This document shows positions 23,981-57,730 of a stretch of 64,000 nt of DNA, piece by piece; the first letter of the stretch is position 1, and each line of letters begins with the position of its first letter. The stretch is from positions 1,488,001 through 1,552,000 of the forward strand of contig OY253671.1 of assembly GCA_958009085.1 (NCBI GenBank), in the 5' to 3' direction. The position numbers were made by a program, and so were the translations under genes. The stretch comes from Protoeuglena noctilucae (Eukaryota). The notes below the pieces were generated by a model, which was not told where the DNA came from, ran no database searches, and saw only the letters and a program-made list of their open reading frames with translations.

Positions 23981-26522
23981 ATGGCCGCGTCCGATTGTGC
24001 GGACGGCGCCCTCGGTGCGTTGCTATGGTGTTGCATGATGCACGGGCGTGCCACAGCCAGCGCAGCGAGCGACGCATCGCTGCTTGCGTGCAGGCGCCAC
24101 AGGCGTGGTTTTGACGGACCTGCCGCGCGAGGTTCTGTGGTGCATTTACAAGGCGATCCCTCCAACCTGCGGAGGATCCCTCGCATGTTCTCTCGGGCGC
24201 CGCGCCTTCTACGCTGCGTGCCGCGCCACGCGCAGCGCCGTCCTCGAGTCGGCAACTGCCGTCGCCCCGCATCCCTGCGTGCTGGCGCCCCACAGCCAAG
24301 CCCCCGCGCCCAGCCTCCCCAGTCCGTCTCCGGACGAATCAGTGCTCCTGGGTGACGGCACGCTGCCCGCCCTCGCCACTCGCCTCCCGCACCTCTCGCG
24401 CCTTTCCCTCACCTTCCCCGCCTCCCACGTCAACCTCCTCCTCTGGTTGCACTCGCCGGCCCCTCCCAAGCCGCGAGCAGAGCGCAGCGGCAACGGCAGT
24501 GGCAGTGACCACCCCCACCCTGACTGCGGCCCTTCCGCTGTTAGCGTTTCTGGCGGTTTCTGGGCGATGGAGCCGGAGCTGTGGGACGTGGACCCGCCCC
24601 ACGTGTTTGTGAGTGAGGGTGCGGGTGCGGAGGACGCGTATCGCGACGTGCTTTGTGCTGTGGGGGCTGTCACTGCAAGGGGCAGGGAGCTGCGGGAGCT
24701 GGACATCCGGGGAGTGGCGCTGGGTGGCCTGGCGATGGCGTCTGCTGCTGGGGACGCACATTGTGGTGTCACGAGTGCGAGTGCGGGTGCGGTGCAGGGT
24801 GTGGAGAGAGCGAGTGAGCTGCTGGGGTCTTTGCGAGGGCTGGAGAGCCTGGGAGTGCGCGTGGATGGGTTGGGCGGGGGCCGGGACGCGTTGGCGCCGG
24901 TGGCGAGGCTGACGCGGCTGACAAAGCTGGCGGTGTGTCAGTGGGAGTCGCGGGGGGTGCGGAGGGGGCAGCCCGGGACAGCGGAGGTGCTGGGGAGGAT
25001 CGAGGTGCTGGGCGCGCTGCGGTGAGGCGCTCAAGTGCCATAGGCATACAGAACTCCACAGCCCTGTGCTACAGCGATGTAGCGCTAGCTCACTCTCCGC
25101 CACATGTGTCCACATTCACGCTGTGGCTGGCTCTACCTGCCATTCATCGTCTCTCACTCAGAGATCTGGTCATCGCTGGTTTCGACGACGTCCCCGGGGC
25201 TCTGTTCCCCGGCCTGGCCGGCCTCACGGCCCTGACGAGACTGGCAGTGACACGCCAGGAGCCCCTCTGCGACGCCGAGCAGCTGCGGCTGCTGCTGGAC
25301 CCATGGTGCGTGACGCGCATGTGCTGTGTCTTTGTCTATTCAATTTCATGCAATGGACGTGCGATGTGAGGGTCAGGGTACCGGCTGTGTGCAACCGTCT
25401 CACTTGCAACACCAATGCAGGGCTAGTGAGTATGATACACAGCTGTCTGATGTCCAGACACCCTGCGTCCCATCCTTCACTGTCCCCAGTCTCGGCCGCC
25501 CCCGCCTCCAGTCCCTCTGCATCCACAACCGCTCCCAATTTGGCACTCGTGCCAGTATCGCCGCCGTCGCGGCCCTCCCCGTCCCTCGCCTCCACCTCCT
25601 CGTCTCCTCGTATCTCCGCCGTGGCCCGGCGTTGTGGGAATCGCAACCCATCGAAGAACTCGAACAGTTGATGTCACAGTACTGTGACGATGCGGGTGGC
25701 GATAGCGATGACGACGTGGACCCTGGCCCCGCCCCCCCTGCCGGCACCCTCACACTGGAGGTGCAGGGGGCGAGGTGGGATGCACTTCACGGCTTCATGA
25801 CTCACGCAGACCCCCTGCATCTGCGCTACATCCTAGACGACGTCTACAGCGGTATGGGCGATGCATGCGCGTGGACTCCCTGGCCCTGTCCTGGTTCACA
25901 AAGTCGATGCGATTCGACTGCAAACGGCTCCTGGACGCGGGGCTGCGGCGGCTTGGCGTCCTGGTCGGGAGTGGGAGTTTCAATATGCCATGGGTAGTGG
26001 ATGCGCTGGAAGGGGGCGCGGGTGCGGGGCCGATGGAGGGGCTCACGTGAGTAACAGCCGCGTGGCGGCTATGTGGACTGCATGTTGTACTGCTATCGTT
26101 CTACTTTTACATGTTCTTTTGCTATCATTATCATTGGTGGCCCTGTCGTTACCGGGCCATCATGGGTCATACCAATGATACCAATGATACCATCATCGGT
26201 ACCTCAGCCCCACCGCTCCCGTCTCTGCGCGTGCAGAGACATCGTCCTCTCCGCCTTCACCGACCCGACCGGATTGACACCGGGAGCGATGGCCAGACTT
26301 CGGTTTCAGCGCATCGCTCCCAGCACCCGCGCACCCCTCGCCCTCACGGTGACGTTCTGCGCGTGCCCTGGCATGCCAGAAACGATCGAGAGAGTGTTGG
26401 GATCGGGGCACCGACTGGGTGCACCCGTGCGCATCGGGGGCGACGGGCTGGGATGGGATGGTATGGGGGGCATGAACGCTGGGGGAGAAGGCACGGCTGC
26501 CCTTCCCCCTTGGAACGCTTAA
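23981..26522 (+). CDS. F-box-like / leucine-rich-repeat protein; exons approx. 23981-24014, 24094-25021, 25162-25305, 25490-25774, 25837-26046, 26237-26522
   Basis: LTDLPREVLWCIY F-box-like start; LxxLxL repeats (LPHLSRLSL, LRELDI, LRGLESLGV, LTRLTKLAV, LTALTRLAV); phase-consistent junctions. Confidence 0.6.
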
Positions 26523-26635: not shown

Positions 26636-29600
26636 TCACTCGGCAATGACAGAGACGTGCCCGCCGCCCAGCGTGGCTGCCACGGCTGCGTCGGTGTACG
26701 CCGACAGCTCCAGCGATCCCGCGACCACCTCCCGCAGCGCTCTGTCGGACACCCACACCGCCACAGGCGCCCCGAAGTGCGAGGGCGATGTGAAGAGCAT
26801 CGCCAGCCCCGCCCCGGCAGCATCTGCAGCGCTCTCCGGGCCCAGTCCGGGGAACGCCACGTGCATCGGCGCATGAGGAATGGTGAGCGCCACTGCTTCG
26901 CGCGCAGTCAACTTCCCCTGCCTCGCACCGGCCGTCGACGTCCCTGCACTCTCCGCAGCCCTCGCACCCGACAGGTCCCACAGCGTCAGCTGCGTCACGT
27001 GCCCTGTGCTGCCCCTTGCCATCTTGCCCTCGATCTGTGCCAGGTGCGTGCCGGCAGCGTTGAAGTGGAAATCGGACCCGAACCACGCTGGCACATATAT
27101 GGCCGTCTTGTCTGTCACCGCCCCTGCGCCATCCCCTTGCCCCATGGCTTGCGGCGACCCAATGCCCCGCACCCACACGTGATCGTCCGATTCCGAAACA
27201 GTGAAGATCGCCAGAGCGCCGTCGGGACTGTAGCCATGGGGCAGAGCGACGGACGCGGGGATCGATCCCCGCACCTCCCCCGTCGCCACCTCCACCACCT
27301 CCACCACCCTGGACACTGCATTGCCGTCCTTCTCCTCACTTCCCTCCTTTGGCCCCTCCTTATCCCTCCCCCCCCGCTGCATCGCCACCAATGCCCCGTC
27401 ACCCACTCTGCCCAGCAGCGTACCGTCACTCCACTGCTCCGGGCGTTCCCCGGATTCAAACCGCCACCGATAGACGCCCGTGTCTGGACCGTCCAGGTCC
27501 TGCACCAGCACCATGCCCAGCGCCGCGCACGCCACGGCGGCAAAATCCCTTGCTTTGCGCTTCGTCCCGCCTGCTCCGTCGTCCCCCACCCCCGTACTAC
27601 TAGTGTCGCCACCACCTCCCGCCCCAGCGTCCCCCGTCGCATTGACAGACGCGCCCGTGAGGACGTCTAGCACGCGCACGGACACCGCGCCGCCCTCGGC
27701 GCCCTCGCAGAACACCGCAAAGGCGCGGCCGTCGCCTACCGCAAGCGCCTGAGGCCTCGCGGTGCCACTACAGTCGCACACCAGCCTCAGCTCCCCCCTC
27801 GCGACGTCATAGAGTCGCAGCTCGCTCCGATCGCTCGCGCAGAACCACCCCAGCGCCTCCCTCCCATCCGCGCTCACCACCCCGCCCTGCAGCCGCCACC
27901 GCGGCTCAGACCCACCCACCGGCCCCTCATTGCCCGGGCCGCCTGCGCCGGGTTCCGTCGACGGGCTCTCATTCGTCGGACTAAGCTCTTTCGGCTGCGT
28001 TTGCTTCTCGGGGCTGTCAGAGAGGGTATCCCCCAAATCGAGGATCTGCACCTCGCGCCTTTGGTCAGCGCACGCCAAGACGTAGCCACCCTGGTTGGAG
28101 GGGTGGAATGCCACCGCAGATACCCACTGGTGTGACTCTCCCGATGCCCGATCCCCCGCCACCGGCACTGTGACTAGACGGCCCTGGGAATGCACGTCCA
28201 CCAACACCACATCTGTGAAGTGAGGGACGGCCGCCCACCGCCCGTCGCTGCTGAAAGGGGCGAGGGGCTTGCGGACGCACGTGTCCTTTGGCACGCGGCC
28301 CGCCTCCTGCCCCTTCGCTGTATTCCACACCACGTGGCCGCCCTCGGCCGTCGCCACCAGCCCCGCACCGTCGCCGCTCGCCGCCATCGCAAACACCTTC
28401 CCGTCGTGCCCGCCCAAGACCCTCTCCACCCCGTCGTCCCACACATACACCGCGTCACCGCACGCCGCCGCCACCCACGCCCCGCCCCTGCGCACCTGCA
28501 GCGCCGCCACTGTGCCCGGGCACCGCATCGCCACTGCACGCAGCGTGCACCCCGGCAGGTCCAGAACCGCCACGGCGCCGCTTGAGTGCCCCACGGCAGC
28601 GCACGCGCCATCGTCGCTGAGTGCGATACACGTGGGATCGCCCTCTGCATGCCCCCACCACGGCGCATACACATCCGCCACCACCGCCCCCGTCGCCAGC
28701 TCCCATTTTCGGAATGCATGCCCCCCCGCTACCGACGCGTGGTTTACATCCACGCACGCGTCTTGGTACCCTCCTGGCACTTCATCCGTGAAAATAAGAG
28801 CCCCCGTCGCGCACTCCCACACCCGCACCAGCGCCGGCCCATCATGTGCCGCACACATCACCAGAAGGTGGTCCCCGTTCGGCGCAAACGCCGTGGCTTG
28901 GTGCCGGAATCGCATACGAGTATCTTCGTCGTCGGGAGGTGTCAGGGTGCGCAGGGCCTGGCCCGTGGTGGCGTCCCACAGCCGCACGGTCCCATTGTCG
29001 ATGTGACGCAGGGTCATGACAGTGGTGAGGTACGCCCCGCGGCGGGCGCGGCTGGGCGCGGCGTCGTCTTGAGGCGCGGAGAAGAGCAGAGCGGAGACGG
29101 ACAGCTCCCCCGGCAACGCCTGCACCGACGGCAGACGCGCCATGCACCCCGCCAGCTTGACGCGGCGCTCTGGCACCCGCGTGCCAGAAACAGCAGTAAT
29201 TTCCCAAGAGTCGGTCTCGGCCATCGCTGCTTTGGCCTGTTCCGCAGCGGTGCGCATCCAGGTCCCCTTCGGTGCCACCCCCGCGACGTCCACTGCCATG
29301 TCGGGCCTCTCCGCTAACATCGAGCCAAACACCCTGCGTGACAAGAGAAAGGGGAGTTCGTGAGGTGTAGGTCTAAAATGGAAAGCAAAGCTGATTGAGT
29401 TGGAGACCTGCAAGACCTAGACACGACAGGATGGGCCAGTGTCGCTCGGAGGTGTGGTCGTGTGAATTGCGTACTCTCTCCCGCATCCCTACCCATCCTA
29501 CACCTCCGCCCATCTCCACCCACCCCTCACCTGAGCCACGCCCGCGTCTCCCGCACCCGTCCCGCATGCAAATGCCCTCCCACAGCCCCCGTCGCCACCG

Positions 29601-32600
29601 CCACCCCCGCCACCAGACTCCCCACCGCCCCCGCCTCCGCCGCAGCCCTCAGGTAGCCCAGACTCGTGCACAGCGCCACGATCGTGTCTACCGCTCCAGC
29701 CTCCAACGCATGGTGCAGCGCGTACTGGGCAGGGTACTGACCCAGGGCTGCCAGGCACGCGCCAGAAACGCCCCCGGGCCCCACCCCCGCTGCCTTCCGG
29801 CCCCACACATCGGCGTGCACCATGTGGCCCTGTCGCAAGTCTACGTGCCACCCCGACTTGGTGTCCTCCACCAGCCAATCCACCACAGACCTGCAGGTAG
29901 TACATGGAAATGATTGCGATCGCTGCTGTCAGGTGCCACGCTGAGAGCCCTCTCTGTCCCACATGTGGGCGACAGTGTGCACATCCCGCTTGTCAACCCG
30001 CTTGCTCTCGCTCACTCTCACTTGTGAAAAGGCCGCACGCGCCCGTCGGCCCTGATGGGGAAGAGGCTCCCCATCGCCGCCAGCGCCCGCCCCGCCACCT
30101 CCTCCCCCACCCCCCCGTGCCCCGCCACCTCCTGCAGCTCCGCAACTCTCAAAGGCTCCATGGCCGCCACGATGGCGGGGAGTATCGACCCCCGCACCAC
30201 GTCCACCTCCCGCATTCTTAGTGACCGGAACTGTCGGTCGAAATAATCCTTGTACAACGCACGGTGACCGGCCGGCAACGCTGCGATGGGAACCTGCGCC
30301 AGCCCCTCGCTCACGCCGGCCCCCGCCTCTCGCTGCACCATCCCCACCAGCGCCGACACGTACGCAAACACCCCCTCGCTCTTGCCCAGCAGAGCCTCCA
30401 CCACCGCACCGCGCTCCTTGTCAGATAAACCCTCGGTTCGCAGGCAGCCGCGGATGTAGGCCCGGATGTCGTCCCGGTTGCGCTCCTCGGTGGGCTCCAG
30501 CGTAAAAGGATCGAATCTCGCCATCTGCTTGACCACGTACGCCTCCGGTCGCGACGTCACCAGCACCTTCACCCACGCGGGCAGCTCCTGCAATGCCCCG
30601 GCCAGCAGCTGCAGTACCCCGTTGCTGCGGGTGTCCGTCCCCGCCTCATCCACCGCGTCAATGACCAACGCCATGGGCTTGTCGTCCCAGGCCACCCCAC
30701 GCAGCGGCTCGGCCACCAGCCTGCGGGCATGGGTAGGGTATCATTGTCAATGCAAAAGAAGAGCACAGCACAAGCGGGCTCATGCAACCCGGTGCCACTG
30801 CGCTGTTGAGGTGTCAAGTGTTGAGGTAGGTTACGGCCACCTCATATTTCACCCCTGGTCATTTCCAGTACCAACTCACTTCTGGAACCATTCCGTGGCC
30901 GCCCCGTTGATGTCGATGCCCTTGAGCCCCTCCGCCACCGCCTCCGCCGCCCCCGGCACCGCCTCTGCGATTTGAAACGCCAGAGACTGCACCACGGCCC
31001 TCGCATCCGTGCGCGCCTCGTCGCCCGCCCTGCAGAAGTGGCCGCCTAGCAGGCGCCCCGCCTTGTGCAGAGACACGGCCACGTGCGCCACAAACGCCGT
31101 CTTGCCCATGCCTGCGGTGCAGGGCGGGGTGTGTTAAGTACTTGCTGAGTAGCGTGTTCGTTGGCTGTTAAGTTTGTTTCCATTCATGCGCATGAATGTC
31201 GCCGCACCTGGCAGCGAGAGTAGCAGGAAGACGTTGGCACGCTTCCCGGTCTGCGCTCCTTCCACCCACTCCATCACTTGGCCCTCCAGCCACACCCGCG
31301 TCCCCGCCTGCAAACAGCACCAGCCACACCCATTGCTTTATATCACGTGCCACCGGCTTGCACCACCTCACGCACTCCCTTTTCATTTATAGCACGCACA
31401 CACCCCGCGTCGCTGCACATCACGCATCGCGTGTGAAGCATCTCTTTGCTATCCCAGTCACCCCATCCCATCTCTCACCATGGACGTCGCCTCACGAGCG
31501 TCTGCGTCTTGCAGAAAGTCCCAGTGCTGCAGCACACCTCCCAGCCGCTGCAACACCCCTTGGTCCACTCCCTGTGTCCCCACCCCTTTCACTCCCTGTG
31601 CTTGCATCACCCCAGCCGTCCCCTGCATCGCCATCCCTTTCACTTCCTGTACCTCCACCCCTTTCATTCCCTCTCTCGCCACCGTCGCCAGTCTGCGCAT
31701 GCCAGCCTGTCGCGCCGCACCCGCACCCACCCCCGCACCCCCACCTGCCCCCGCAGTACCGACGGCGTTGGCGTGGACGTACCACAGCACGTCCCGCAGC
31801 CTCACTTCCGCGAACTCCATCTTCTTACGTCGCTTGGCGCCCTGCGCTACCTCGTACAGCCCCTGCGCCCGCACCACGTCAGTTGGCGCCAGCCTCTGCC
31901 GCAGGTGCGTCTGCACGAACATGGCCCATTCCGGAGGGTCCAAGCTCTCTTTATACCATTTCGCAGCTGATTCGATCACGTACAATTCGTCGTTGAGCAT
32001 GGCCACCTCAAACGTCGCCCACTGCATCTCCCCCGCCACCTGCCCAAACCCATCGTCCTCCGACACCCACATCTCCCGCAGCTCTCTCGGCAACTTCTTC
32101 ACCTCCTGTGGCTCGCTGTCCACCACCTGCCCGATCTTGAGCTGTGTCATCAGTACTTCCATCATTCGGTCCATCTGCGCCCCTAACTGCTCCACCTTAT
32201 CCCCCACGTTCTGCACTAATCCAGCCAGCACCTGCTCCCCCGGCGCCAGCATCCCAAACACCGCGTCCACCCGCTGCTTGTCCCCCAGCACCGCCCGCAG
32301 CTGAGCCGGAGACACGTCCTCCAGCCGCGTTGCCCCCGCCTCTTTCGCCAGCCGCCCCGCCAGGTCCTGACTCGAAAAGAGCTTTCCTCCTGATATAGCT
32401 GACCGTATCTCTTCGATACCCCGCAGCGACTGCACCTGCATGGCGGCCATCAGTGTCCCCACCTGGGCTAACACCTTTCCTGCCAGCTCCTGCAGACCAT
32501 CGGTGTCCCCTCGTGCTTTCACGAACCGACCCAGCCAGGTGCGACCCTCCACCTCCTCCACCACCTGCCGCGCCTCCTGAAGCAGGGCTGCGGGGGGCAG

Positions 32601-33616
32601 GGGCACCGCACAGTCACGCAGTTGCAAAGAGATGCATGCTAGTAGTACTAACCCGGTGGCCAAACTGCATGTTGCTGTGCCAACTGTCAGTTGCCACTGC
32701 ACCCTGTGTTACTCCACCCAGTGCCATCATTCAGTTCCTGGCAGTTGCTAGTGTAACACGTCTTGTCCTAACCACTCTTCGCCTGTCAGCTCCTCGAGTG
32801 CCCTCGTCTGCTGCCGCACCACCTCATTCGCCTCCACCACCACCTCCACCACGCCCACCACCACCCTCTTGAAGTCCTCCAGCGCAGCCCGCACCGCCAC
32901 TGCCTCCGCGATCCCCGTCATGACACGGGACGCCACCTCTGCCAGTGGACCCACCAGCGGGGCCCTCGCCAGGACCTCCAGGGCCTGCAGACCGCCCTTG
33001 GCCAGCACACGCAGCACATCCCCGGTCACGCTGTATTGCTGCGAACGGGCACGGGGAGTCGAAACACGCGTTGGGCCACCTGCGCATCCTCCTCAGGCAT
33101 GCAGCGCCCATGCATCAGGCTGGTATGCAAGCGCCAGCGCAGCGTGGGCACCTGGAGCATGGACGCGATAGAACCCGACAGCGGCTCGGCCAGGTTCAGC
33201 AGCTTCTGCGCGCACGGGGGCCTCGACAGGTGCTTCGATAGGACGTTAAACGCGTTTCCTGCCTCGGCCTCGGCTTTTCACCTCTCGCACGCGCGCAAAA
33301 TGCCCAAGCAATGTCGCATCTCGGGCGCCACGCACCTGCAGTTCGTCGAAGCGTTCCTGCGCGGCGCTCCCGATTTCAATCGCCCGCTGAGCGACCGTTG
33401 GCTTCGAGGGCTTGGCATCCTCGCCGGCGGGCGCCCCGGTGCCGGGCTCGCCTTGCCGCTCTGCCACATGCCTCTGCGAAAAAAAATATCGGGAGCATTT
33501 CAGCGCGACTCACGCCCCCAGCCGCAAGAATGTAATAATTTCCATCTGTCAAGAAGCCTCCTCGCCTCTGTCGGGCTTTCCGCGGTGGCCGCGGGCTTGC
33601 TCGCTCCGCATCCCAT
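26636..33616 (-). CDS. NLR-like STAND protein: N-acylation motif, helical MLKL/RPW8-like N-terminal domain, NACHT NTPase, WD40 propeller; exons 33616-33566, 33473-33336, (possible exon ~33260-33151), 33038-32783, 32587-31479, 31307-31208, 31111-30880, 30720-30022, 29890-29531, 29333-26636
   Basis: Start MGCGASK; AGTRVWL...FLLLSLPGMGKT (Walker A), GGHFC, SLAFQIA, LVIDAVDE (Walker B), KVLVTSRPE, KSEGVFAYV, PFHKSVVDWL; WD repeats GTVRLWD, VRVWE, GHDGKV, VSAVAFHP. Confidence 0.85.
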
Positions 33617-34117
33617 TTACGAAGCTGCCCGGTGGCAGCGCCGCAGTGCGCTTCTCCCTTCCCAGCGCGAAGTTGCGCGCCGCAGAGTGCCGGTGGACCG
33701 AAAAGCGCAGGCGCTGCCCTCTCACGTCGACTTGAAACACGCTTCATACGTAAGAAAGCCCACGTCACGATCTCATGCGCATCCGTTCCCCCCACGCACG
33801 CGGCCACCGATATACGATCGCCTAAATCCGCTTCACAGCGCGCGCATCGCGAGCATCCCCGGCGGGACGGGCGTCGGGACGTCCATCGACGCGCGCCCGT
33901 CCCCGGACTCCTCTCCCGCGCCCTCCGACGCCGCCTCGCCTCGGAACCCCGACGGCCCCGCCAAAAGGTCATTCTCGTTCTGCGAAGAATGCCAGAAGAG
34001 TACAGCGGTATCGCATGACGCGTCCGTCGACGTCATACCCATGCGACCAGCCACGTAGCTGCCTTAGTACACACCACCCCTCAGGCTCTACCATGGCCTG
34101 CGGAAGCATCACGGCTA

Positions 34118-37100
34118 TCACTTAACCCCTCCGCGCACCGTGGGAGGCGGCAGTTGCCTCAGATCCTTCTTGTAAGCCTCTGTTGTGGGGAACACGAAGT
34201 TTATAAGTGCCTGGCACGACTTCCACCCCACGTGCAAGTCGTGGCCCCCCGCCGCCAGCGTCCCCGCCACCCGCTCCGTGTCGGCCAGCTCGTCCTCCGA
34301 CAGCTCCCTGAAGCGAGGCAGACGAGGGTGTTGTTGATCGCGAGAAAATAGGCAACCAGGCGATGGTATGTATGATCATAGCAATGTTGCAACGTATGAA
34401 GTGCTCGCTCCCTCCCTGCGCCAAATTAGCCCCTCCCCGTGCCTGCACCTCTGCTTTTATCACCAACCCACCCACCCCATCTCCCTCACCCATACTTGAC
34501 GAGCGGCAGCGCCTGGCTGGACCCCACCGCCACCGCCTCCCGCCGGTGCAGCCCCGCCAGCAGCGCCCCCATCTGCGCCTCCTCCCCCCCGCTCCCCTCC
34601 CCCTCCTCCGCGCCGCCCCGCCCCTCCCCCCGCATCTCCGCAAGCGCCTGCCGATCCCTGACTGAGAAATGCAGGCCCATCAGATGACGCACCGTCGCCG
34701 GCACGCGATCATCACACTGCAAGAACTCCTGCACCCACTGCGAGACCTGCTCATATGAAGCATCCCTGTAAACGTCCACGAGAGGGTTCAAGCCCAAGGC
34801 TGTCAAAGAGGCCAGGGTAGGGGCCGCCGAAGGGTCCACGTCCGTGCGAGGGCGCTTGGCCACGCGATCAGCCCCCGTCCCGGGACCGCTGCTCCAGAAA
34901 GGCTCCCGCCGCCCGCGGCCCATCAGCGCGGACGTCTCTTCTTCGTCCCGCTCCTCCTCCTCCTTCAGCAGTTTCTGGCAGAAATCGAAATCCATCTGCG
35001 GCACGTGGGGACGGGGGGAGGGCAGGGGTGGCTGAGTGGGTGTTGGGAGCACGCATGGGTGTCGGGGCAAGCTTGTAGCTGTCGGGAGCAAGTTTGGTCC
35101 CATCACAACAGTGAAAAGCACGTTATCTGTTTGCAGATGTCGACAGCACGTACCGCGTCTCACCGCGAACAGCACGTGCAATGTGTCATCTAACACCGCA
35201 AACAGCACGACCCTTGTGTCACTCCCCACTCCTTCCCCCCCTAACCGCGAACAGCACGTGTCTTGTACCACCCCCTACACATCCCCCCCCTCACCGCAAA
35301 CGGCACGTGCCGGGTGTAGTCGACGGGCCTTGCATCACCTGTCACCTGACATCACCACTCACTACCTCACTATCTCCTCCCTCACCGCAAACAGCACGTG
35401 CCGCGTGTAGTCAACTGGCATGGGCCCGCCCCCCCCCGCCTCCTCCACCAGGTGCCGGCTCTGCTGCTCGTCCCACCCCACGACCCGCACCGGCTGCCAC
35501 TTCGTGCGCGGGAGCTTCCCCGCGTTCCACAGCATCACCTCGCGGCCCACCAGGGCGGGGCCACTGGCTCGCGATCGGAACATGCCCGCCTGAGATGGGG
35601 GAGAGAGCGGTGTGGCATGGTGAGAGTAAGGCGATTGCTAGCAGTTTTGAATGTTGTGAAGCTTCCAAGGTAATACATGTCAGGCATGCGGTGGGTCGCT
35701 CGCCATGCAAAGCCACATTCAGCGCACGCTAAGTGCCCCCAGCTCTCCCCTACCTTGCCGCTCCCCTCACCAGGCTGGGCAGCCCCTCCATGAGCCCCGC
35801 ACTCAAACCCTCATCTCCTCTACCCTCACCAGGCTGACCACACCCCTCCCCTCACCTACACCCCTCATCTCCGCTCACCAGGCTAGGCAGCCCCTCCATG
35901 AGCCCCGCGTCATACCACTTGACCCGGTCGAGCGTCTTCTCATCGTCATAGGCGTGACGGACCTGCTCCTGGATCAGCCGGATGTCCTGCACCTCACCGT
36001 CATCGTACAAAACCTGGTGGCGCCACGTGAAGGGGTCGAAGTCTGCAGGGAGTGGTTGGGGTGATTGAATTGGGGGTGAAGATAGCGGGGAGTTATAAGT
36101 GAGGATGGGGAGTGGTTGGGGTGATGGAATGGGGTCAAGACTGCGGGGAGTGGTTGGGATATCATCGAATGGGGTCCAGGTCTGATAAAGGCATGTGTAC
36201 CACTCACCACCCTCTGCACCATCATGCAACACTCCCCACCCCCATCACCCCTCACCCGTGATGACCGCCATGTACCACTTGCGCTCGTGAGACCAGAACA
36301 CGCCCACGCGCTTGCCGATGGCGCGCGACCTCTCGAGCGCCACCATCGCCGAGTAGACGCGCTTGTGGGCGATCTGCGCCGTGCGCATGAACAGGCACGA
36401 CTGCTTCATCTGGGGGTTCACGCACATCTGGCATTTGCCGCACTTCTCGATCGGGAAGGTCGGGTGGAACTGCGTCCGCTGGCTCTTGCGCTCCTGCGAG
36501 GGAGGGGAGGGGAGGGTGAGTGCGATGGGTCTCTGTGCGTGTGCTGAATGAGTGTGATATCTTGCTGCATGTGTTGGCTGCAGCTGCATCGGCATATCAC
36601 AGCTCTAACTGCATGCGCAAGCTCTTACGGTGCAGCTTAGCTGAGCCCTGCCCAGGGTGACGCATGCATGCCGGCCAGCACACACGGCGTGCCCTTTGCG
36701 TGCCCTGCCGTCCTCTCGTCACCTTCGCCGTGTGGTCCTTGGGATCGAAGCGCAGCAGGTACGACTTCGTAATCTGCACCATGCCTGCGGAAAGAGACCG
36801 AAGAAGAGAAGGTCTGAGGCCTTCCCACCGACACAAACAAGCGTGCTTCGGCGGGCAAAGGCTCTGCGGCGAGCACTCGCCGTCCTCCTCCTTGTGCTTG
36901 ACGACCACGAGGTCAATCTCCTTGAAACCGCCGTTGTACTCGATCGTGTAGCAGTTGCGGGACCGCTCGTAGCCATTGACGCGACCCAGCTTCCACTGCT
37001 GGTCCTGCGGGCCGGCGCAGTCCGGGCGTCGCGGGACACGCTCGCCGCGACATTTGCAGCGCGAAACACCCGGTGGACCGCGCGGCGGGCGGCCGAGCGC

Positions 37101-37855: not shown

Positions 37856-38838
37856 TCAGTTGCCGAGGGCCTTGAGGCCCAGGATGATGCCCGCCCCGAT
37901 CACGTGGCCCGCCGAGCCCATGGCGAACACGTCCACCACCGTGAAGCCCGCCGGGTCGGCCGTGCCCACGCCCGCCGACTGCGCACAGGCGTGAGGGCGA
38001 GGCGGTTTAGGCAAAGTGATTCCGCAGCTCCGGATGTCGTTTGGGAAGCCCGACCGCCCCGGTTGAGAACCATCGCGAGACAGCCAGCCCACCGGCGCGC
38101 AGCGCATCGCACCTTGTCCCGGAGCTGCAGGCCGTTGCCCCCGAGCGCGGGCTTGTTGGCCGTGGGCGCGAGGCCGAAGCGGCCGGCGGCTGCGGGGAGG
38201 GCGAGCGAGGCCGGGGTCGACGTCAGCGGGCAGGATGGGAGGGCCCTGGGTGACGCTGCGCATGCGGACGAGGCCACCTCGACTCACCGAGGCACGCAGC
38301 CGTGGAGGCCACCATGATGAGGTTGGTGGAGGAGCCGAAGAAGTCGGCGCGGGCGACCACCGAGCGGCGCGCGGCCTGCGTGGGCGGGAAAGGGGTGCTG
38401 AAGGTGACAACCCGCCCCGTCCCGCTCCCCTCGCGCGCTGGGCTCGACTCTCGAGTTGCCCCCGCGCTCCGTTCCATCTGATTCGGTCACGGCCGCGTCG
38501 TCGTCGCGCATCAGCCTCCCCCGGGCCCGAAACACCGCCCGGATTGCGACCCCGTATCCCGCCCCGAGCAGGACCCCTCCACGCCAATGGGCGCACCAGC
38601 ACGTCGCTCGAGCGCGGGGATCGCCGGCCGCGAAACCCATCACGCCCCCCGTCGCGTGTGCTCCCGCGCAAGGGGAGATTTCGACCGAGCCCCCGGGACC
38701 CGCGGGCCGGCGAGGCCCTTAGCCCGTCCCCCGGAAGGCGTGATATCTTCTCGCTCTCTGTAGCCTACTCACCACGCGGGCAGCCTTGGGGGCCGCGAGC
38801 TGGGTCCCGGCGAGGGAGGCGCGCATCGTGGAGGCCAT
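37856..38838 (-). CDS. PSAK: Photosystem I subunit K precursor; exons 38838-38773, 38375-38288, 38189-38113, 37978-37856
   Basis: Transit peptide MASTMRASLAG..RRSVVARA, then DFFGSSTNLIMVAST..AGRFGLAPTANK..DPAGFTVVDVFAMGSAGHVIGAGIILGL. Confidence 0.96.
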
Positions 38839-39521: not shown

Positions 39522-41650
39522 ATGAAGAAGACCAAGGGCCAAGGGCCCCTGCACGGCAACCCCGACGAGCTCATCGTCAACATCCGCAACAGCAAGGCGA
39601 GCGCCGGCAGCGCGAAGGGGTAAGCAGCGCGCGCAGCCGCGTTCTCATGGCCGGCGGAGCGCCCCGCGCCGTCCCCCGGCCCCGCAGATGTACTCGGAGC
39701 TGTTGGATTTCAACGACCAGATCTGCCGCGCCGAGGCGATGTTCAAGGTGCGGCGCGCCGGCGTCCGCGCGGCAGTTGGGAATGTGCGCGCCGCGAACAT
39801 GCGCTCGCATCCGCGCGTCCGCGCCGCTCCCGCCCGCAGCGGATGCGCAGCACGACGGACGACTTCATCGTCACGTGCACGGAGATCCTGGCCGGCAAGA
39901 CGCCTCACGTGTACCTGGAGCACGACTCGGCCCCGAGCGGGGAGCGCAACCTGGGCGTGGGCATGGACGCCAAGGCGATGCGCCAGGCGCTGAGCGACTA
40001 CAAGGACCGCGTGCAGGAAAAGGTGCTCAAGCCGATCAACGAGTGGAAGCTCGGGTTCCGCACCGCCAACAACAGCGTGGACCTGCTCAAGCAGCGGTGC
40101 GACGCCGTACTCGACCGCAAGGCGAGTGGATGCGGGGCTATTGTGTAAGGTGCGTTTGGTATGTGTGGATGTGATGTGCACTGCTGATGCATCGGTGGGG
40201 AGGTGCCATGCTGGCAAGCGCTGTGCGTTTCATGTGTATATGCGTCTCATGTTCGCAGAAGAAGCTCGAGAAGGCGCAGAGTCGGACGCTGCCGAAGATC
40301 GAGAGCCTCAAGAAGAAGATCCGGGTGAGCCAGAGCAGAGGGGGCGGGCTGCTGGTGTTGCGTGGATGCGGGGTGCGGCAGGGGCGTGCATGTGCATGCG
40401 TACCCTGTCCTAGTGGGCGTGTGAGTAGTATTGCACTGCTGTGCGTCTGCCACTGGTTGATGTCGCTGGTTGGCCACTCACATGATGCCCTTCTCTTGAC
40501 ACCCCTGCAGTCTCGCAAGGACGCCCGCAGCATCGAGCGCGGCAACGAGGCGGTGGAGAGCCACGAGCAATACCTGTACGAGAAGGAGGCCAAGCTGAGG
40601 TGAGGAGATGTTGTGTGTGCATGTGAGAGATGATGTGGAGTGGCATATGGTTAATACCTGTACGAGAAGGCCAAGCTGAGGTGAGAGTGTGATGGTGTGG
40701 ATGATGCGTGCTGGCTTGTGTGAGAAGGGGGCTCAGGTGAGAGGGGAGGGTGTGGGTGAGCTATGTGGGGCTGTGCGTGCTTGAGAGAGGGTGTTGAGCT
40801 GTGGCGTCGTGCTGTGGCATTGACGCGCCAGATGCCGGCTGTGCATGCCCATCCTTGCACCCATTGTTCCCTCGCCATTCACAGCTCTGCCCGCATGGCC
40901 TTTAACTCGATGGAGATGGAGGTGTTTGAGCAGCTCAAGAGCCTGGCCGAGGACTGCACGGGGATCAAGGCGCTGGTGGCTATGATGATGGACGAGAACG
41001 CCACGCTGGTGAGTTGTGTGTGTGAGGGGGATGTGCGGATGATAGAAGGGGTGCGAGATGAGAATGATGAGTGTGCGAGATGCGCTGGCGGTGGGGTGCG
41101 ATTTGGCTGCAGCGCTGCTGCAGTTGGGACATACCCAGAGCTCGCGACATACCCATAGCTTAGCTAGTACCCAGCGACATCCTTAGTAGCTATCCACTAG
41201 TAGCTTCCCTGTCATTCCCCACGTCTACCCTCACCTCTGCTGCACGTGTGACGCCGCCTGTTCTCTTCTCTTTTCCCTCTCAGATGCGGTCGGCCATCGA
41301 TGCCATGGGGGACCTCGAGGTGATTGCAGCCATAATAAGAATTAGCATTGATGCATTGCTTAGTTGTGATGGTATGCTTAGCTGTGATGCCGTGGGGGAT
41401 TTCGAGGTGAGATGGGCATTTGGGATAAGTGACATGCTCAGCAGTGGTGCGAAGGTCATGCTTCGCAGTGCAATGCAGTGCACTGCTGGGCGTCCTGGTG
41501 CATGTGAGCCGCCCGCTTGCTCCTGCGTCGAACACTGCGGCTCTGCATCCCTCACAAATCACATCTGACCAAATTCCCTCCACCTTCCTCCCCAGCTCGA
41601 GCCCCTCATCGCTGAGGCAAAGCGCAAGGGACCCGTGGAGATGGGGGCGG
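39522..41650 (+). CDS. N-terminal exons of a BAR-like coiled-coil protein; true start may lie upstream
   Basis: About 8 phase-consistent exons encoding long amphipathic helices (ALSDYKDRVQEKVLKPINEW; KKLEKAQ; EMEVFEQLKSLAEDC); BAR assignment is inference. Confidence 0.6.
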
Positions 41651-41803
41651 GTGAGGGGGGTGGTTGCATAATATTTAGTAGTTTTGGACATGCATTGCAT
41701 GCAGTTAAGCAATATGCATTGTTTGCCACACTGGAGCCCCAGCTGAAGCCCATGTTTCCCTCAATTTTTTCATCTGTTTTTGATCACCCTTATTTCACCT
41801 CAG

Positions 41804-44800
41804 AAACCCCCACCCCCCCCATGGAGCCCAAGCTGACGCCCGTGTCTCCCGTCAGCGAGGAGGTGGCTGCGATCGGTGGAATTGAGCAGGGCATTCCCCG
41901 CGCTGCCAGGGAGAGGGCGATGGGGGAGGTGGTGGCGATGGAGAAGCAAGAGGGGAGGTCCATTGGTGGGGGTAGCCAGGGTGAGATGTAGAAATATATA
42001 ATGTAGATATAGTAAAGTATATGGGTGGATATATATGAGTAGATATAAGCATGAGTGGGTAGTGTGATGGGGGAGGTGGTGGCGATGGATGGGTGAGTGG
42101 GGTAGAGAGAAGAGGGTTGGTTGGTATCACGTTTCCCTTCAAATTTCATCATAACAATAATCTCACTGTCCATCTCCCACCCCAGCAATGGAGGTGTGCT
42201 CCCCCGTGGGGCTGGAGGACCCCGACCGCACCCGCGACATCGCATCCACCTCCTACCTGAACGAGGCGAGAGCTGGGATGTATTGGTAATATAGATGATA
42301 TAGTGTAGTAGTAATGATGGTAATGGTTGTAATGGTTGTAATTGTAGTGGTAGTGGCACTGCACCCGCGACGTCGCATCCCCATATCAACGCCACTGCCC
42401 AGACACGTCAAATGCCAATTGACATCAATAATCTCCGCATAATTACAAAATACTAACCATACCACGCATTCCCCGTCATAATTTCAGGACGTCCCCCACC
42501 CCGACTCCCCCACTGCCAAGCACGCCCACACCCACGCCGCTGTGCTGGAGCCCGTGGTGAGGAATTGAGTGGATGCGATGGGTGCTATTAATATCATTAT
42601 TATTACTTAAAATAGTACAATAATACGACACAGAAGGTGAGTAAAAAAATTGATCATAGCGAACGGCATAGTAAATAAGAGACGCTTTTGATGGTGAGTC
42701 GATTACCACTGGCGGATGGCACGGCAACCAGCTAACAAGTGAGCACTGCGTTTCCTGACCCTTCCCGCAACCATTCGGGGCAAGCGCGTTTGGCTTGCCC
42801 CACCGCCACCGCACCACCATTGCACACCCACCCCACACCACCCCTGCACTTTCACCCACCCCACCATTCCGCACACCCACCCCACCCCTGCACCGCCACC
42901 CCACCCCACCCCTGCACCCCACCCCACCCCACCTCTCCCCATCTTCCATTCACCGCTGCCCCACCCCCCAAGGTCGCCCCCCCACTGCCGCTTGGCTGCA
43001 GGCCGCGGTGCGAGTGGAGGAGGCGGACTGAGGGGGAGTGGAGGGGCAAGCGAGCAATGAGAGAGATGGAGGGAGATGAGGGGGGTAGAATCCCTCTCTT
43101 GAGGGTGGTGGTGGTGGTGCTAGGGGTGGCATTGGTGGCAATGGTGGTGGTGGTGGGGGTGCAGTGGTGGTGGTGGCTGCGGTGCAGTGGTGGTGTGTGG
43201 TGCATAGCGAGAGCGATGCCAGTGCTTACTCGCGCTCGGTTGGCCGCTCCGGTTCTTTCTTTTGAGTTTCGAGACATGCTGTGTCGTTCACCTTTGAAGT
43301 CCCCTGTTTCACGCTCAAAGCACAAGTCTTGGCACATCACACATCCATGCCTGCCACCTTCTGTATTGCATATGCGGTGCTGCACCATCTATGCACCAGC
43401 ATCACCCACCAGCATCATTACCCATGCACCCCATATCGCAGCCCCACCATCACCCGTCTCTGCACTCACCAACCATGCACCCACCCCACCCCACCCGGTC
43501 CCAGGTTCGATCCCCACCTCCCCGCCCATTCCCTTAATCTCGCATTCCCCCCTCTTTCCCCCCAGGGCCGCCGCCACCGCCCCGCAAAACAGCAGGGCGG
43601 TGGTTCGGACGCCCACCCCACCTCTGCTGTTTATTCCAGCAAGCAAGGGCCTGCCCTGGTTTTAAACAAGCAGGGGCCGAGCATGCTGGCCCCTCTGGGC
43701 CCCTTCCAAGCTGCGTCAGCAGAGCGTGGGGTGAAAGGGTCAGTCAAGGCGCCAGTGAAGGGGCCAGTGAAGGGACCATATCAAGCTCAGTCAACTACAG
43801 AGCGTGTGATGAAGGGACCTATGACGAGCCCCTTTCATGCGCAATCGACGGAGCGTGCGATGAGGGGCGGCAGGGGTGGCATGGGGGGCGGGCTGCAGAT
43901 GGGAGCGGGGGTGGCGGAGGCGAGTGCGGATGGGGCGATGACGGCGATGTGTGTTGCTTATGTGTGCTGGTGTTTGCTGTAATGACAGTTACGAGTTATT
44001 GATCATGGCATGGCCATGCTGCCGATACGCTTGTTCCTTCTCTTATCGCAGCGGGAGGGTGGCTACGAGAGCGACGAGGAGGACCTGAGGCTGATACGGT
44101 GAGCGGGCGTTATTCGATGGATACAGGATAAGTAATACTTTATAATCTATCTATAAATGATGCTAACTAACCATGCATCTCAATAATGTTATCGTTATAA
44201 TCACTTTTATATTCACACATATGTATTTAATTACACATATAATTATAGTTGTGTTGATAATTTATAACTTTATTCATATATATATTAACAATATATTGAT
44301 CATCGTTTCCCTACCCCTTTCTGCAGGGTGCGAGAGGTGCACCCAGGCAGCCTGCGTGTGGGGAGGAGGGGGCCGGGCAGCGATGGGAATCGAAATGGGG
44401 ACGGCAAAAAGGGGAGAAAGGGGAAGAAGGGAAAGAGGGGCAAGGCGGCGCTGGCGAAGGTGAGACGGGATTTGGTTTAGTTGAGTATTTCCAATATCCA
44501 ATATTATTAGTAATGCATTATTATTACCAAGGCTGGTCAGCATGATGCTGTGCCGCCCTCGCCCCAGCACCCACCCCCACGCACCTTTCTTGTATCAAAA
44601 TGCCATTACTCATTCTATTGCTGGGAATTTTATTCCCGATGTTATTCGTATCCCCAATATTATTCGCAGTCGCTGCCCGGCGGCGCGGTGCGCAAGCAGG
44701 CCTCGGCTTTGCGGTGGTGGGCGCTGCTGCGGGGGCGGGGGAGGGGTGGGGGAGAGGAAGGGGGTCAGCAGAGCGTGGGGTCGGAGGAGGCAGAGAGGGG

Positions 44801-47800
44801 GTGGTACCAGGTGAATAATGGATATAATTGAATATGTTTGCATGGTAGCAATTGGGGTGGTCAGTGGTGGGTTATAAGGTGTCATCTGGCATGTACAGCC
44901 TATATCTGCGCTCATCATCCATCCAACCCATTAGTACTAGCATCAACGTGAAGTACCGTCAGTAGCGCACCACGTATAGCATCGTCATCGTGCCACGCAG
45001 GTGGGCCCGGGCCTGCTGTGCGGGCTGGGCGGTATGTCCCGCGCCCGCCGCACCCCACTGCGCGCTTCTGAGGTGGATGAGCTGCTGGGTGTTACCCCCA
45101 CTAACACGGCGCAGACTGGCGCACCGCGTCAGGGGGGGATGAGTCAGGGCGAGGGCGAGCGGGGGGGTGGGGGTGCGGGTGGGGGTGGCAGTGCGGGTGC
45201 AGAGATGGGTGCGGGTGCGGGTGGCAATGCGGGTGCTGGGGTGGAGGGTGGCAGTGCGGGTGTGGGTGCAGAGACGGGTGCCAGTATTGCCAGTCCCGAC
45301 ACACGAGGTGTGCTTTGGGAGAGGCGTGCTGTGGGTCACGGGTCGACCAACCCCGCCATTCTGCGGATGATGGAGCTGCAGAGGCGGGGGCTGGGGATGG
45401 AGGGGGCGGGGGAGAGGTCGGAGGTGAGGGGTGGTGGGGGTAGTTGGGGGTGGTGGAGGGGCGCAGGCATGTTAGACTAGTGAGATCTGGATCGCTGCAC
45501 CCACCACCACCCTCGCTCGTCGCTTTGCATTCACCACTTACTCGCCATCATTCACCACTTCGCATCTCTCTCTCCCACACAGACCGACACGCTGGGCTCC
45601 GTCACCCCCCCCTCGGAGTCCCAACTGCAGCTGCTGCCCGCATCCTACACACACCTCGCCACACGCACTGCCCTGACACGCAACCACCACAACAGGGGTG
45701 GGGATGGTGCTGTGCATGCCGGCCACAAGAACGGCGGTGGTGAGGGTGGCGGTGCGGGTGGCAGTGGGGGTGGCAACGAGGGTGGCAGTTGGGGTGGCAA
45801 TGGAGAGGAGGGTGCGCGTGGTAGTGAGGGTGGCGGTGAGGGTGGTGATAGGGGTGGCAGTGGGGGCAACAGTGGCGATGGTGGGGATGCGTACAATGGG
45901 TATTCCCTGCTGCCCGCCAACGTCGATGTTTCAAGCATACAGGGCAGTCCCCTGTCGTCGCCGGGCGCTGTGTCGGTGGGCGGGGTGGTTGGGGGTGCGG
46001 GGGTGGAGGGTGGCAGTGCGGGTGGTGGTGCGGGTGCGGGTGGGGGTGGCAGTGGTGTGGGTGCAGAGATGGGTGGCGGTGCGGGTGGCAGTGGGGGTGC
46101 AGCTGAGGGTGTGGATTGGTCGGGCGGGGACGTGTTTGGTGCGGCAGAGGGGGGTGCGGGTGCGGAGGGGGCGGGTCGCGACAAGGCGCGGGTGTGGGTG
46201 GCCGTGGATCAACTCAAGCACTCCCGGGTGAGTCACAGATGATAGCATTGCAATGCATGAGTTGTGTTGATCGACACCATCGGTAAGCAAGCATGTATGT
46301 GAGGGGTGAGCGAATGTGGGTGGTGGTGGATCAACACCCACTCACAGTGGAGTAGCGGAGTTGTTGGCTAGAAACGAGCAGAATATAGATACTTATGAAC
46401 ATAGACACAATTTGAATACCAATTACATGCCATGCACCTCCCCCCGCAGCGCGAGGCGTCCCGGCTGCTGTCGGGCGCAACGCCGGACTGGCACGCGTTC
46501 CGGCCCCTGACGTCAGTTGCCAGAATGGGCGCGGCGGCGAGGGGTGGGGACGGCCGGGCGGTGCGACGGGCGCTGCGGGAGGCGGGGGCGGGGGGGGAGT
46601 GGGAGCCGGTGTCGGTGTGTGAGATGAGGGAGGAGGGGTGGGAGGTGAGGGGGGTAGAGTTGATGTTAGAGTAGTAAGGAACTGTATTTAGTCTGATGCT
46701 CAGCCCAATTATCTTTCCCCAACACTCGCCCTTCACCCCGGTTGCACGTTTGCAAACCCTACTTGCACTCCCCATCGCACCCCCCATCTCTACGCACCCA
46801 CCACCCTCTCCCCATTACCCTCCCCGCAGCCCCGCCCAGGCTTTTTCGAATTCAGCGTCGGGGAGTCCTCTGTGCTGCACGCCAGCCGGGCACGCGATGT
46901 GCAGCACACGGGGTCATTACCCACGGACCTGGATTTGAATTTGAACGAGGGGGATTTGAATTTGAACGAGGGAGGGGGTGGTGGGGGTGTGGGGGGTAAG
47001 ATGGGTGGGATGGGGAGTGGGGTGGCGAGGGGGCGGTGGTGGGGTGGGCGCCAATGAGGGGGGCGGGGAGGGGAGGGGAGGTGAGTGGGATTGGGACTGG
47101 GTGGGAAATATGTGATAATATCGATTGGGGTGATAATTGGGGTAAGTGGGGTAGTGGTGTGAGCGCAAGTGATGGGTGATGGGGTGGAGTGATGAGGTAA
47201 TTATCATACTATTATTATTATCGTTATTCGATTTCTTATCATTTCTCTCCCCCAATTGCATCGCAGGGCAAGGGTGCGGGTGCGGATGCAGCTGCATTGT
47301 TGGGCGACAAGGGGGGCGTGGGTGGGGATGAGTTGGTGCGGAGGATGAGTGATTGGGGATGTTGATAAGAGATGGGTTGATTAGGGATGGTGTGAATTGG
47401 GCTGAATGACGGAGGTCTGGTTGTCAGTAACACGGGGTCATTAATAGTAACTACTATTGAGTGCTACCAATTACTACCTAAACAGCACACTAATAACCCT
47501 CATCTCTCCCCCAGACCCTCCAGCCCCGCATTGCTCTGTGGCACATGCGAGCGCGTGTAGTGAGGCATCACCCGATGAGAGAGGCGGCGACGGGGGTGGC
47601 AGTGAGGGGGGCGGCGAGGGGTGGCGGATTAGGTGTTGAGAATGCGCCGCCGTTGCAGCTGCGGGGGTGGGTGGGGGAGGGGGCGGCGGTGCGAGGGGCG
47701 GAGGAGCGGGCGAGGGCGGCGAGGGAGGGGAGGAGGGAGAGGGAGGTGAGGGGATGGGCAGGGCAGGGCGAGGGGTTGACATGGTTAGTTACTATTACCA

Positions 47801-57400: not shown

Positions 57401-57730
57401 CCATCCTTTGTTTGCTGCCAACAATACCACTAGCTAGCGCCACCACACCCACACCCACACCCACCCACCCACGCCAGCCGCCCCACCGCTGTTGTTACAC
57501 AGCTGCAGGGGTTGAGCTGCATTTCCGTTCCCGCATTGCATGGCCGCGTATCTTCCTTTCCGCAAAGCAAAGCAGAGCAAAGCAGCAAGGCATTGCAGTT
57601 TGAAGTTCAAACACACCCGTTACTGTTAATGCCAATGCCAACTCAACTGCCGTTCTATGCCAACCTTCGGTGCCAGGCCGACCCAAAAGCAAAACCCCAC
57701 GCCCCCAGAGGTCGCGGGTTCGAATCACGT

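Follow-up and report, generated by a model that had tools for sequence, protein, structure and literature searches.

Fungal NOD-like receptors (NLRs) with HeLo-like (HELL) or Goodbye-like heads, such as those of the Podospora NWD type, place a helical bundle, a NACHT nucleoside triphosphatase (NTPase) and a WD40 region in that order along one polypeptide, share a GTxxWL ... TSRPE ... FHxS series of motifs and form multi-copy families, and their heads are related to the four-helix bundle of MLKL and to plant coiled-coil (CC) domains (PMC10197012, in excerpt). NACHT NTPases with C-terminal WD40 regions are likewise described in a chlorophyte, Chlamydomonas reinhardtii, in a paper whose main text, in excerpt, does not contain the term 'N-terminal' and in those words describes no head domain or acylation signal (PMC4773052). 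So far as these excerpts go, chlorophyte NACHT-WD40 proteins (PMC4773052) and the bundle-NACHT-WD40 arrangement, common in fungi (PMC10197012), are known already; our searches of open-access papers and bioRxiv turned up no green-algal NACHT protein reported to have an MLKL-like head or an acylation signal. Here we describe a minus-strand gene, at 33616-26636 of a 64,000-nucleotide stretch of Protoeuglena noctilucae DNA (assembly GCA_958009085.1, contig OY253671.1, positions 1,488,001 to 1,552,000; hereafter the window), whose predicted product opens with an acylation-type motif and carries an MLKL-like helical head ahead of a NACHT-type NTPase and a WD40 region, and which, judged from this layout, could plausibly serve the alga as an immune or cell-death receptor.

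The window protein shares the motif series and domain order of the fungal NLRs, and like them belongs to a family with several members, but differs from them in occurring in a green alga, in having an acylation motif and some 100 residues before the bundle, in having a family-specific region of about 300 aa between bundle and NACHT, and in being without near-identical tandem WD40 units, with no HET domain listed and no amyloid motif noticed. With MLKL of animals and the plant MLKLs it shares the end of helix 3 and helix 4, which align to the window family both in the MLKL_N profile and in human MLKL chains of the PDB; it lacks the pseudokinase domain, however, scores under the Pfam cut-off, and would be activated by a NACHT-WD40 switch rather than by phosphorylation. 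Plant helper NLRs with RPW8 heads (ADR1, NRG1) also set a four-helix-bundle-type head, here predicted, on a signal transduction ATPase with numerous domains (STAND) within the green lineage, and some plant CC-NLRs, RPS5 for example, are tethered to the plasma membrane by acylation of the N-terminus. In contrast to those helper NLRs, the NTPase of the window protein is of NACHT/NPHP3_N rather than NB-ARC type, its sensor is WD40 rather than leucine-rich repeat, and it has no PF05659 match. NPHP3, finally, resembles the window protein in its Gly2 N-terminus (present here as a motif), helical or coiled-coil region, NPHP3_N NTPase and C-terminal repeats, but in the excerpts of its description carries tetratricopeptide repeats (TPR) and is ciliary, whereas WD40, MLKL_N likeness and several divergent members are found here.

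A spliced gene with a single open frame

The exon chain was built from the minus-strand stop-to-stop frames between 26636 and 33616, with splice sites placed by reading the strand; its ten exons, joined in silico, give a single open frame of 1898 codons plus stop (5697 nt). All nine acceptors end in gcag, whilst seven donors begin GTG followed by A or C and two are GC. The G+C content at third codon positions (GC3) is 0.76-0.89 in every exon, against a total G+C of 0.50-0.67 in the introns. The components are as follows, a slash marking the point of splicing.

Exon 1, 33566..33616, minus strand: 17 codons with the MGCGASK start; TAA directly upstream in frame; joined with exon 2 in frame
Intron 1, 33474..33565, minus strand: proposed GC-AG, GAG/GCGAGG ... 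ttttttttcgcag/, 92 nt
Exon 2, 33336..33473, minus strand: residues 18-63, probably a disordered, charged linker; collinear with P0010 from residue 33
Exon 3, 33152..33205, minus strand: residues 64-81
Exon 4, 32783..33038, minus strand: residues 82-166; leading helix, then helix 1, helix 2 and the first part of helix 3 of the MLKL_N-like bundle
Intron 4, 32588..32782, minus strand: GC-AG, CAG/GCGAAG ... ccccccgcag/
Exon 5, 31479..32587, minus strand: 369 aa; end of the bundle (32397..32587), then the middle region (31479..32396)
MLKL_N-matching stretch, 32397..32587, minus strand: end of helix 3 and helix 4 (LLQEARQVVEEVEGRTWLGRFVKARGDTDGLQELAGKV...); PF22215
Middle region, 31479..32396, minus strand: about 300 aa, family-specific, conserved in 11 relatives
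Exon 6, 31208..31307, minus strand: NACHT-type module from its GTRVWL start as far as the P-loop's first Gly
Exon 7, 30880..31111, minus strand: Walker A (GMGKT), HFC, LAFQIA; PF24883 match
Exon 8, 30022..30720, minus strand: Walker B (VIDAVDE), VTSRPE, EGVFAY, helical/winged-helix part ending FHK; PF24883 match
Exon 9, 29531..29890, minus strand: helical linker from NTPase to propellers; collinear with P0010; no Pfam family
Exon 10, 26636..29333, minus strand: 899 codons plus stop; WD40-type beta-propeller(s)

The model agrees well with its relatives. P0010, an independently assembled homologue of 1119 aa from short contigs (3.7-4.1 kb), is collinear with the spliced product over residues 33-1005 (36% identity, E 5e-134), and none of the nine exon junctions falls at a gap of the alignment. 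P0006, P0009 and P0010 confirm junctions 5/6 and 6/7, since in each of them the helical region continues uninterrupted into GTRAW...SLPGMGKT. Homology fixes the acceptor of junction 4/5 at 32587, LL(Q/E)EA coming next in all relatives; enumeration of donors showed that an open frame with this acceptor requires a GC donor, and the donor CAG/GCGAAG at 32783 aligns P0007 and P0006 across the junction without a gap, so that a GC-AG intron 4 is established by homology. Where this intron lies, two paralogue fragments, P0012 and P0015, have an insert that is read through. Two of the nine introns of the gene appear to be GC-AG, and a blastn search for introner-type repeats found no copies similar to any of the nine elsewhere in the window. 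The spliced gene of the preliminary description, and every feature that it had placed there, were thus recovered at the same minus-strand coordinates.

RNA was represented by contigs from four marine metatranscriptome runs (X1-X4), whose matches are exact, thin and patchy. All nine listed pieces from X2-X4 that lie in the gene fall inside predicted exons, which is weak evidence, 82% of the span being exonic. We discarded the backward 'joints' at 30317/29593 and at comparable positions, which are 19-nt low-complexity matches of other transcripts. The contig depth of 143-188 in run X1 at 32514-33181 arises from short GGTGGTGGAGG-type low-complexity words common to other transcripts, not from expression of the NACHT gene.

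A helical head resembling MLKL_N

Exon 4 alone and the whole of exon 5 alone match no Pfam family at E <= 0.1, the domain being split by intron 4. Compared with PF22215 (MLKL_N, Pfam cut-off 27 bits), the first 100 aa of exon 5 match profile positions 65-126 of 142 (E 0.022, 14.7 bits). The same family is listed for 10 of the 15 family sequences scanned, in a constant register (profile positions about 50-130), and is the first-listed family in eight of those ten; the five sequences without it lack all or part of the helical region. The matches, with E-values and scores, were:

P0006: 3.8e-6, 26.9 bits
P0011: 1.2e-4, 22.1 bits
P0007: 1.6e-3, 18.4 bits
P0005: 5.7e-3, 16.6 bits
P0015: 0.011, 15.7 bits
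P0010: 0.015, 15.2 bits
Window: 0.022, 14.7 bits
P0003: 0.026, 14.5 bits
P0012: 0.12, 12.4 bits
P0008: 0.17, 11.8 bits

The window protein and P0006, the best of these, are clearly related (E 3.3e-19). When the profiles of two family alignments were compared with the PDB, the top six matches in each case were N-terminal domains of human MLKL, at E-values (0.0068-0.067 and 0.0077-0.051) whose significance is borderline, and the conserved pattern in the MLKL alignment reads EEA...E...R...RF..A..D......K. Exon 4 aligns to P0007 and P0010. An Atlas feature search with residues 150-340 of P0010, which we treat as a lead only, returned fungal hypothetical proteins and, ranked second, a cluster with 36% MLKL_N members (score 0.94, 201 shared features), with plant MLKL_N and RPW8 clusters at 0.85-0.88. 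These fold and remote searches used homologues and single exons in place of the joined window protein. In a low-confidence model of the P0010 bundle segment the helices (H45-60, H64-89, H93-114, a short H117-124 and H129-171) follow the order that would be expected of such a bundle.

From the sequence-profile comparisons we consider remote homology of the head to the MLKL_N/HeLo superfamily likely. The MLKL/RPW8/HeLo-like bundle proposed in the preliminary description accordingly holds at the level of a profile relation to MLKL_N, but its RPW8 part does not: PF05659 has no row in any Pfam scan of the window exons or their homologues, and RPW8 was seen only in an Atlas cluster of score 0.85, 16% of whose members are annotated with it.

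The middle region that follows contains the motifs GEQVLAG, PxEVKKLPxxLRxLW, WY, LAP and DFLxDAxxR together with a low-complexity G/A/V stretch; it belongs to no Pfam family, and an Atlas search with 269 aa of it gave no usable match.

NTPase and WD40 region

A complete fungal-type series of eight NACHT motifs had been described for this gene, and all eight lie within the spliced frame, at the following residues:

GTRVWL, 538-543
PGMGKT, 569-574
HFC, 594-596
LAFQIA, 613-618
VIDAVDE, 666-672
VTSRPE, 701-706
EGVFAY, 762-767
FHKS, 878-881

Both Walker A (LPGMGKT, 568-574) and Walker B (LVIDAVDE, 665-672) are intact. Among Pfam families, NPHP3_N (PF24883) scores best for the NTPase; it exceeds its cut-off of 24.8 bits in exon 7 (E 5.5e-9, 36.9 bits) and in exon 8 (E 7.3e-6, 26.7 bits) and matches P0010 over all 164 profile positions (1-164, 63.1 bits). 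The NACHT family itself (PF05729) stays under its cut-off of 26.7, at 13.2 and 18.9 bits in the window (18.9 being exon 8) and 22.2 in P0010.

Exon 10 matches 11 beta-propeller or WD40 families of Pfam (E 1e-8 to 0.046), all under their own cut-offs, with PF00400 at 22.9 bits against 27. In a phmmer search of the PDB it matches 58 sequences at E <= 0.001, the listed WD40 matches ranging from 1.5e-18 to 1e-3 and being led by the designed WD40 propeller Tako8 (1.5e-18), ATG16L1 (5.8e-8) and WDR5 (about 3e-6), and the large WD40 exon of the preliminary description is borne out by these propellers. The clear matches lie at about 28304-29002 (exon 10 residues about 111-343); the remainder is degenerate, with low-complexity inserts. 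Fungal HET-E/NWD genes bear near-identical WD repeats, whereas Tandem Repeats Finder reported no repeat units in the DNA of the WD40 exon, four short low-complexity arrays lying elsewhere in the gene, and no HET family is among the Pfam matches listed for the window exons and their homologues. The HET-E/NWD likeness drawn earlier therefore extends to the domain architecture but not to a HET domain or to tandem WD40 repeats at the DNA level and, as read from the sequence, is one of architecture only.

An acylation-type N-terminus

The ATG at 33616 follows immediately on an in-frame TAA, in an A(-3)/G(+4) context, and MGCGASK is encoded directly by 33616-33596. Exon 2 has no in-frame ATG, so that an upstream coding exon is needed. 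The donor GAG/GCGAGG joins the strong, T-rich acceptor ttttttttcgcag/AGG at 33473 in frame; a second in-frame solution for intron 1, with the canonical donor GGC/GTGAGT at 33514 and an intron of 53 or 62 nt, also keeps MGCGASK. We favour the GC donor because the 17 codons that the GT alternative would add resemble intron sequence (GC3 0.53, against 0.80 for the coding sequence) and include AAA, TTA, TTA and CAT. Under either solution the predicted protein starts with MGCGASK.

MGCGAS also starts P0010 and its cluster mates P0025 and P0026, before the same series of domains, an agreement that is hard to explain by chance. P0010 carries about 80 extra residues (about 18-113) between MGCGAS and the bundle, a stretch for which no Pfam family is listed and which the window protein is without. 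As no RNA contig contains a splice within the gene, exon 1 rests on homology and on the in-frame join; of the hidden 17-codon exon at 33616-33566 put forward earlier, the MGCGASK start and the in-frame GC join stand, whereas its splice was not seen in the RNA contigs.

N-myristoylation, by the PROSITE-type rule, calls for Met-Gly, a permissive residue 3, Ser, Thr, Ala, Gly, Cys or Asn at position 6 and no Pro at position 7, and dual acylation additionally for Cys next to Gly2. MGCGASK agrees with this rule at every position (Gly2 myristoylation, Cys3 palmitoylation type), and from the motif we infer lipidation at Gly2/Cys3. The acylation-type signal at Gly2/Cys3/Ser6 noted earlier is in keeping both with the rule and with the retention of MGCGAS in P0010, P0025 and P0026.

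A small family with divergent members

A HMMER scan with the 369 aa of exon 5 against 1.84 billion representative proteins yielded 11 relatives, and no relative in the family carries a name. Clusters P0002, P0003, P0012, P0013 and P0014 are 54-63% identical to the window protein, and P0015 is a fragment of 74% identity. Members of P0002, P0003, P0013 and P0015 lie on separate contigs of 245-1066 kb, and P0012 and P0014 on contigs of 1.7-2.2 kb, with a cluster mate, P0029, on a 148-kb contig. A word-index search for longer relatives of exon 5 found none, the same search with residues 1-600 of P0010 returned only P0010 itself, and scans of metagenome contigs confirmed 0 of 390 pattern matches for family alignment A3 and 0 of 40 for P0010.

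On these sequences the family is small and lineage-restricted, with several divergent members, the counts being those of a protein database rather than of the source genome, a pattern at odds with a single-copy housekeeping orthologue. The preliminary description had named three outcomes that would contradict it, namely a first exon not spliced to the gene, an N-terminus without a four-helix-bundle match and a conserved single-copy housekeeping orthologue; none of them was found, and the last is countered directly by the 11 relatives and their divergence.

A putative membrane-tethered switch and its alternatives

On balance we think it probable, if modestly so, that the gene encodes a membrane-tethered STAND (NLR-type) switch of about 1900 aa, in which oligomerisation of the NACHT module would cluster MLKL-like heads and so kill or arrest the cell. 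We infer each functional step from what is a list of parts. Myristate on Gly2 and palmitate on Cys3 would hold the resting protein at a membrane, and the WD40 propellers would keep the NTPase off until they bound a trigger, which might be a molecule of viral or other non-self origin or a danger molecule. Nucleotide exchange would then allow the NACHT modules to oligomerise, and the oligomers would cluster the MLKL-like bundles at the membrane, leading to its disturbance or to the opening of a channel; the infected cell would die or arrest, a mode of action already proposed for MLKL and for the HeLo-like NLRs of fungi and the CC/RPW8 NLRs of plants. In a haptophyte alga, cells that had recovered from virus transcribe NACHT genes, among others, at a high level (PMC12489294, in excerpt).

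Several observations weigh against this reading. The comparison of the exons with RNA that had been suggested for the gene gave no contig, across the four runs, that splices within it: the 17 listed RNA pieces inside it contain no joint, and three of the 17, all from run X1, continue unspliced into introns 4, 7 and 8. The whole 369-aa exon 5 is without a Pfam match at E <= 0.1, no family member reaches the PF22215 cut-off, and the window, at 14.7 bits, lies far under 27. The AlphaFold models are poor, with a predicted local distance difference test score (pLDDT) of 60.8 and a predicted template modelling score (pTM) of 0.28 for P0007 and 66.1 and 0.35 for the P0010 bundle segment, and in Foldseek and VIA searches these low-confidence models gave generic helical matches with no Foldseek E <= 0.001. 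With the P0007 model, Foldseek returned BAR-like long-helix matches only; the best VIA matches were Z 9.0 (Rsd) and Z 8.5 (metavinculin tail), and a plant NRC3 chain, at Z 6.7 over its residues 25-131, is within helical-bundle noise. MLKL is absent from the Foldseek and VIA lists, which at such model quality shows nothing either way, and a single-sequence phmmer search of the PDB with P0010 found no match at E <= 1. About 100 residues lie ahead of the bundle, unlike the free N-terminal domains of MLKL, HeLo and plant CC proteins, and the first bundle helix is mildly hydrophobic, its best 19-residue Kyte-Doolittle mean being 1.3 against 2.1 in P0010. Finally, the same layout can serve a non-immune role, as in NPHP3 (PMC7202064, in excerpt).

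This last point leads to the strongest rival, which we regard as unlikely: a non-immune scaffold like NPHP3, that is, a myristoylated STAND NTPase at the flagellar or plasma membrane that organises a signalling compartment, the MLKL_N likeness then marking a remote helical relative without killing activity. The top Pfam family of the NTPase is indeed NPHP3_N, although PF24883 also spans the NACHT modules of fungal NLRs; the CFAP61_N-like exon in the window (see below) makes flagella probable, and the fold searches with low-confidence models did not single out MLKL. NPHP3 itself is N-myristoylated, has a coiled coil (83-207) before its NTPase and repeats at its C-terminus, and depends on the myristoyl group for ciliary targeting, but its C-terminal repeats are TPR (PMC7202064, in excerpt), whereas those of the window protein are WD40. 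A set of 11 relatives in 1.84 billion proteins, several of them 54-63% identical on separate large contigs, also misfits a conserved ciliary orthologue, and the helical domain matches MLKL_N specifically and repeatedly. With a C-terminus of WD40 in place of TPR, and relatives that are few and divergent, the protein lacks the repeats and the broad conservation expected of an NPHP3 orthologue.

Distinctly improbable, in our view, is a genuine NACHT-WD40 gene that truly starts elsewhere than in exon 1, MGCGASK belonging by chance to an upstream open reading frame (ORF) or to another transcript, so that there would be no lipid anchor. No RNA contig from the four runs covers 33182-33515 or the exon 1/exon 2 junction. 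The proposed donor is a non-canonical GC, whilst in neighbouring genes RNA confirms four introns, clean skips of 159-390 nt, every one of them GT-AG (one more listed joint, from 34303 to 34946, is ambiguous); and RNA of the upstream same-strand gene ends at 33720-33748, leaving about 100 nt for promoter and 5' untranslated region. Against this, P0010, P0025 and P0026 open with MGCGAS ahead of the same domains, exon 2, without an in-frame ATG, needs a coding exon upstream, an in-frame stop lies just 5' of the ATG, and at least two in-frame joins retain MGCGASK. Elsewhere in the same gene, at the exon 4/5 junction, a GC-AG intron is needed on independent grounds, and the genome is compact, the RNA contig of the convergent gene ending 168 nt from the stop codon.

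Very improbable is a last alternative, that this copy of the gene is silent or decaying and on its way to becoming a pseudogene, its frame open by chance, in which case it should be assigned no function: RNA cover is thin and patchy, and the X1 pieces include unspliced intron sequence that could derive from library DNA, but 5697 nt of frame remain open over nine introns with GC3 of 0.76-0.89 against an intron G+C of 0.50-0.67, all catalytic motifs are intact, and the X2-X4 pieces fall in predicted exons in nine of nine cases, weak as this is with exons at 82% of the span.

To return to the proposed membrane-tethered switch, a broader reading is possible but doubtful, namely that an MLKL/HeLo-type bundle was fused to NACHT-WD40 already in chlorophytes and serves marine picophytoplankton as an anchored abortive-infection switch against giant viruses. 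If this were true, bundle-on-NLR death receptors would predate land plants and be common to the green lineage and fungi, and the middle domain of 300 aa would act as a novel regulatory module that holds the bundle inactive. How marine phytoplankton sense infection and decide on death is poorly understood, although carbon flow and the collapse of blooms depend on such decisions. A STAND receptor of a green alga whose killing head is probably of MLKL type would offer a concrete, testable candidate, and would bear on the origin of the four-helix-bundle heads found in animal MLKL, in the CC/RPW8 NLRs of plants and in the HeLo-like NLRs of fungi.

Surroundings of the locus

The upstream gene on the same strand (33720-35428, minus) yields spliced transcripts in three marine metatranscriptome runs, with joints at 33979/34139, 34306/34489 and 34995/35386 and a stop codon near 33833; its RNA contigs end about 100 nt from the MGCGASK start codon, and its largest exon ORF belongs to no Pfam family. 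Downstream, a convergent gene (25500-26468, plus) has an RNA-confirmed GT-AG intron at 26046/26237, and its contig reaches 26468, which leaves 168 nt to the NACHT gene's stop codon. The short spacers to both neighbours, about 100 nt and 168 nt, point to a compact genome.

Further along the window, an exon at 37859-37975 (minus) encodes the C-terminal part of a PsaG/PsaK-type photosystem I subunit (PF01241, E 8.4e-12), which suggests a nuclear gene of green-lineage type; PsaK is nuclear-encoded in the green lineage. An ORF at 62190-63068 (minus) has a weak CFAP61_N match (E 7.4e-4, under the cut-off), which suggests that the organism builds flagella. Together with the marine RNA, these two matches are consistent with a marine green-lineage flagellate.

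Very long open frames of 1012, 824, 592 and 501 aa, rich in G, A, E and P and without a Pfam family, occupy 47497-56401 (plus), where the GC skew is strongly positive and an FGLD...A..FGAA motif recurs; they may form one giant low-complexity gene, possibly for a cell-surface protein. Islands of lower G+C content lie at 40001-46000 and 56001-62000 (0.56-0.59, against 0.61-0.72 in the rest of the window).

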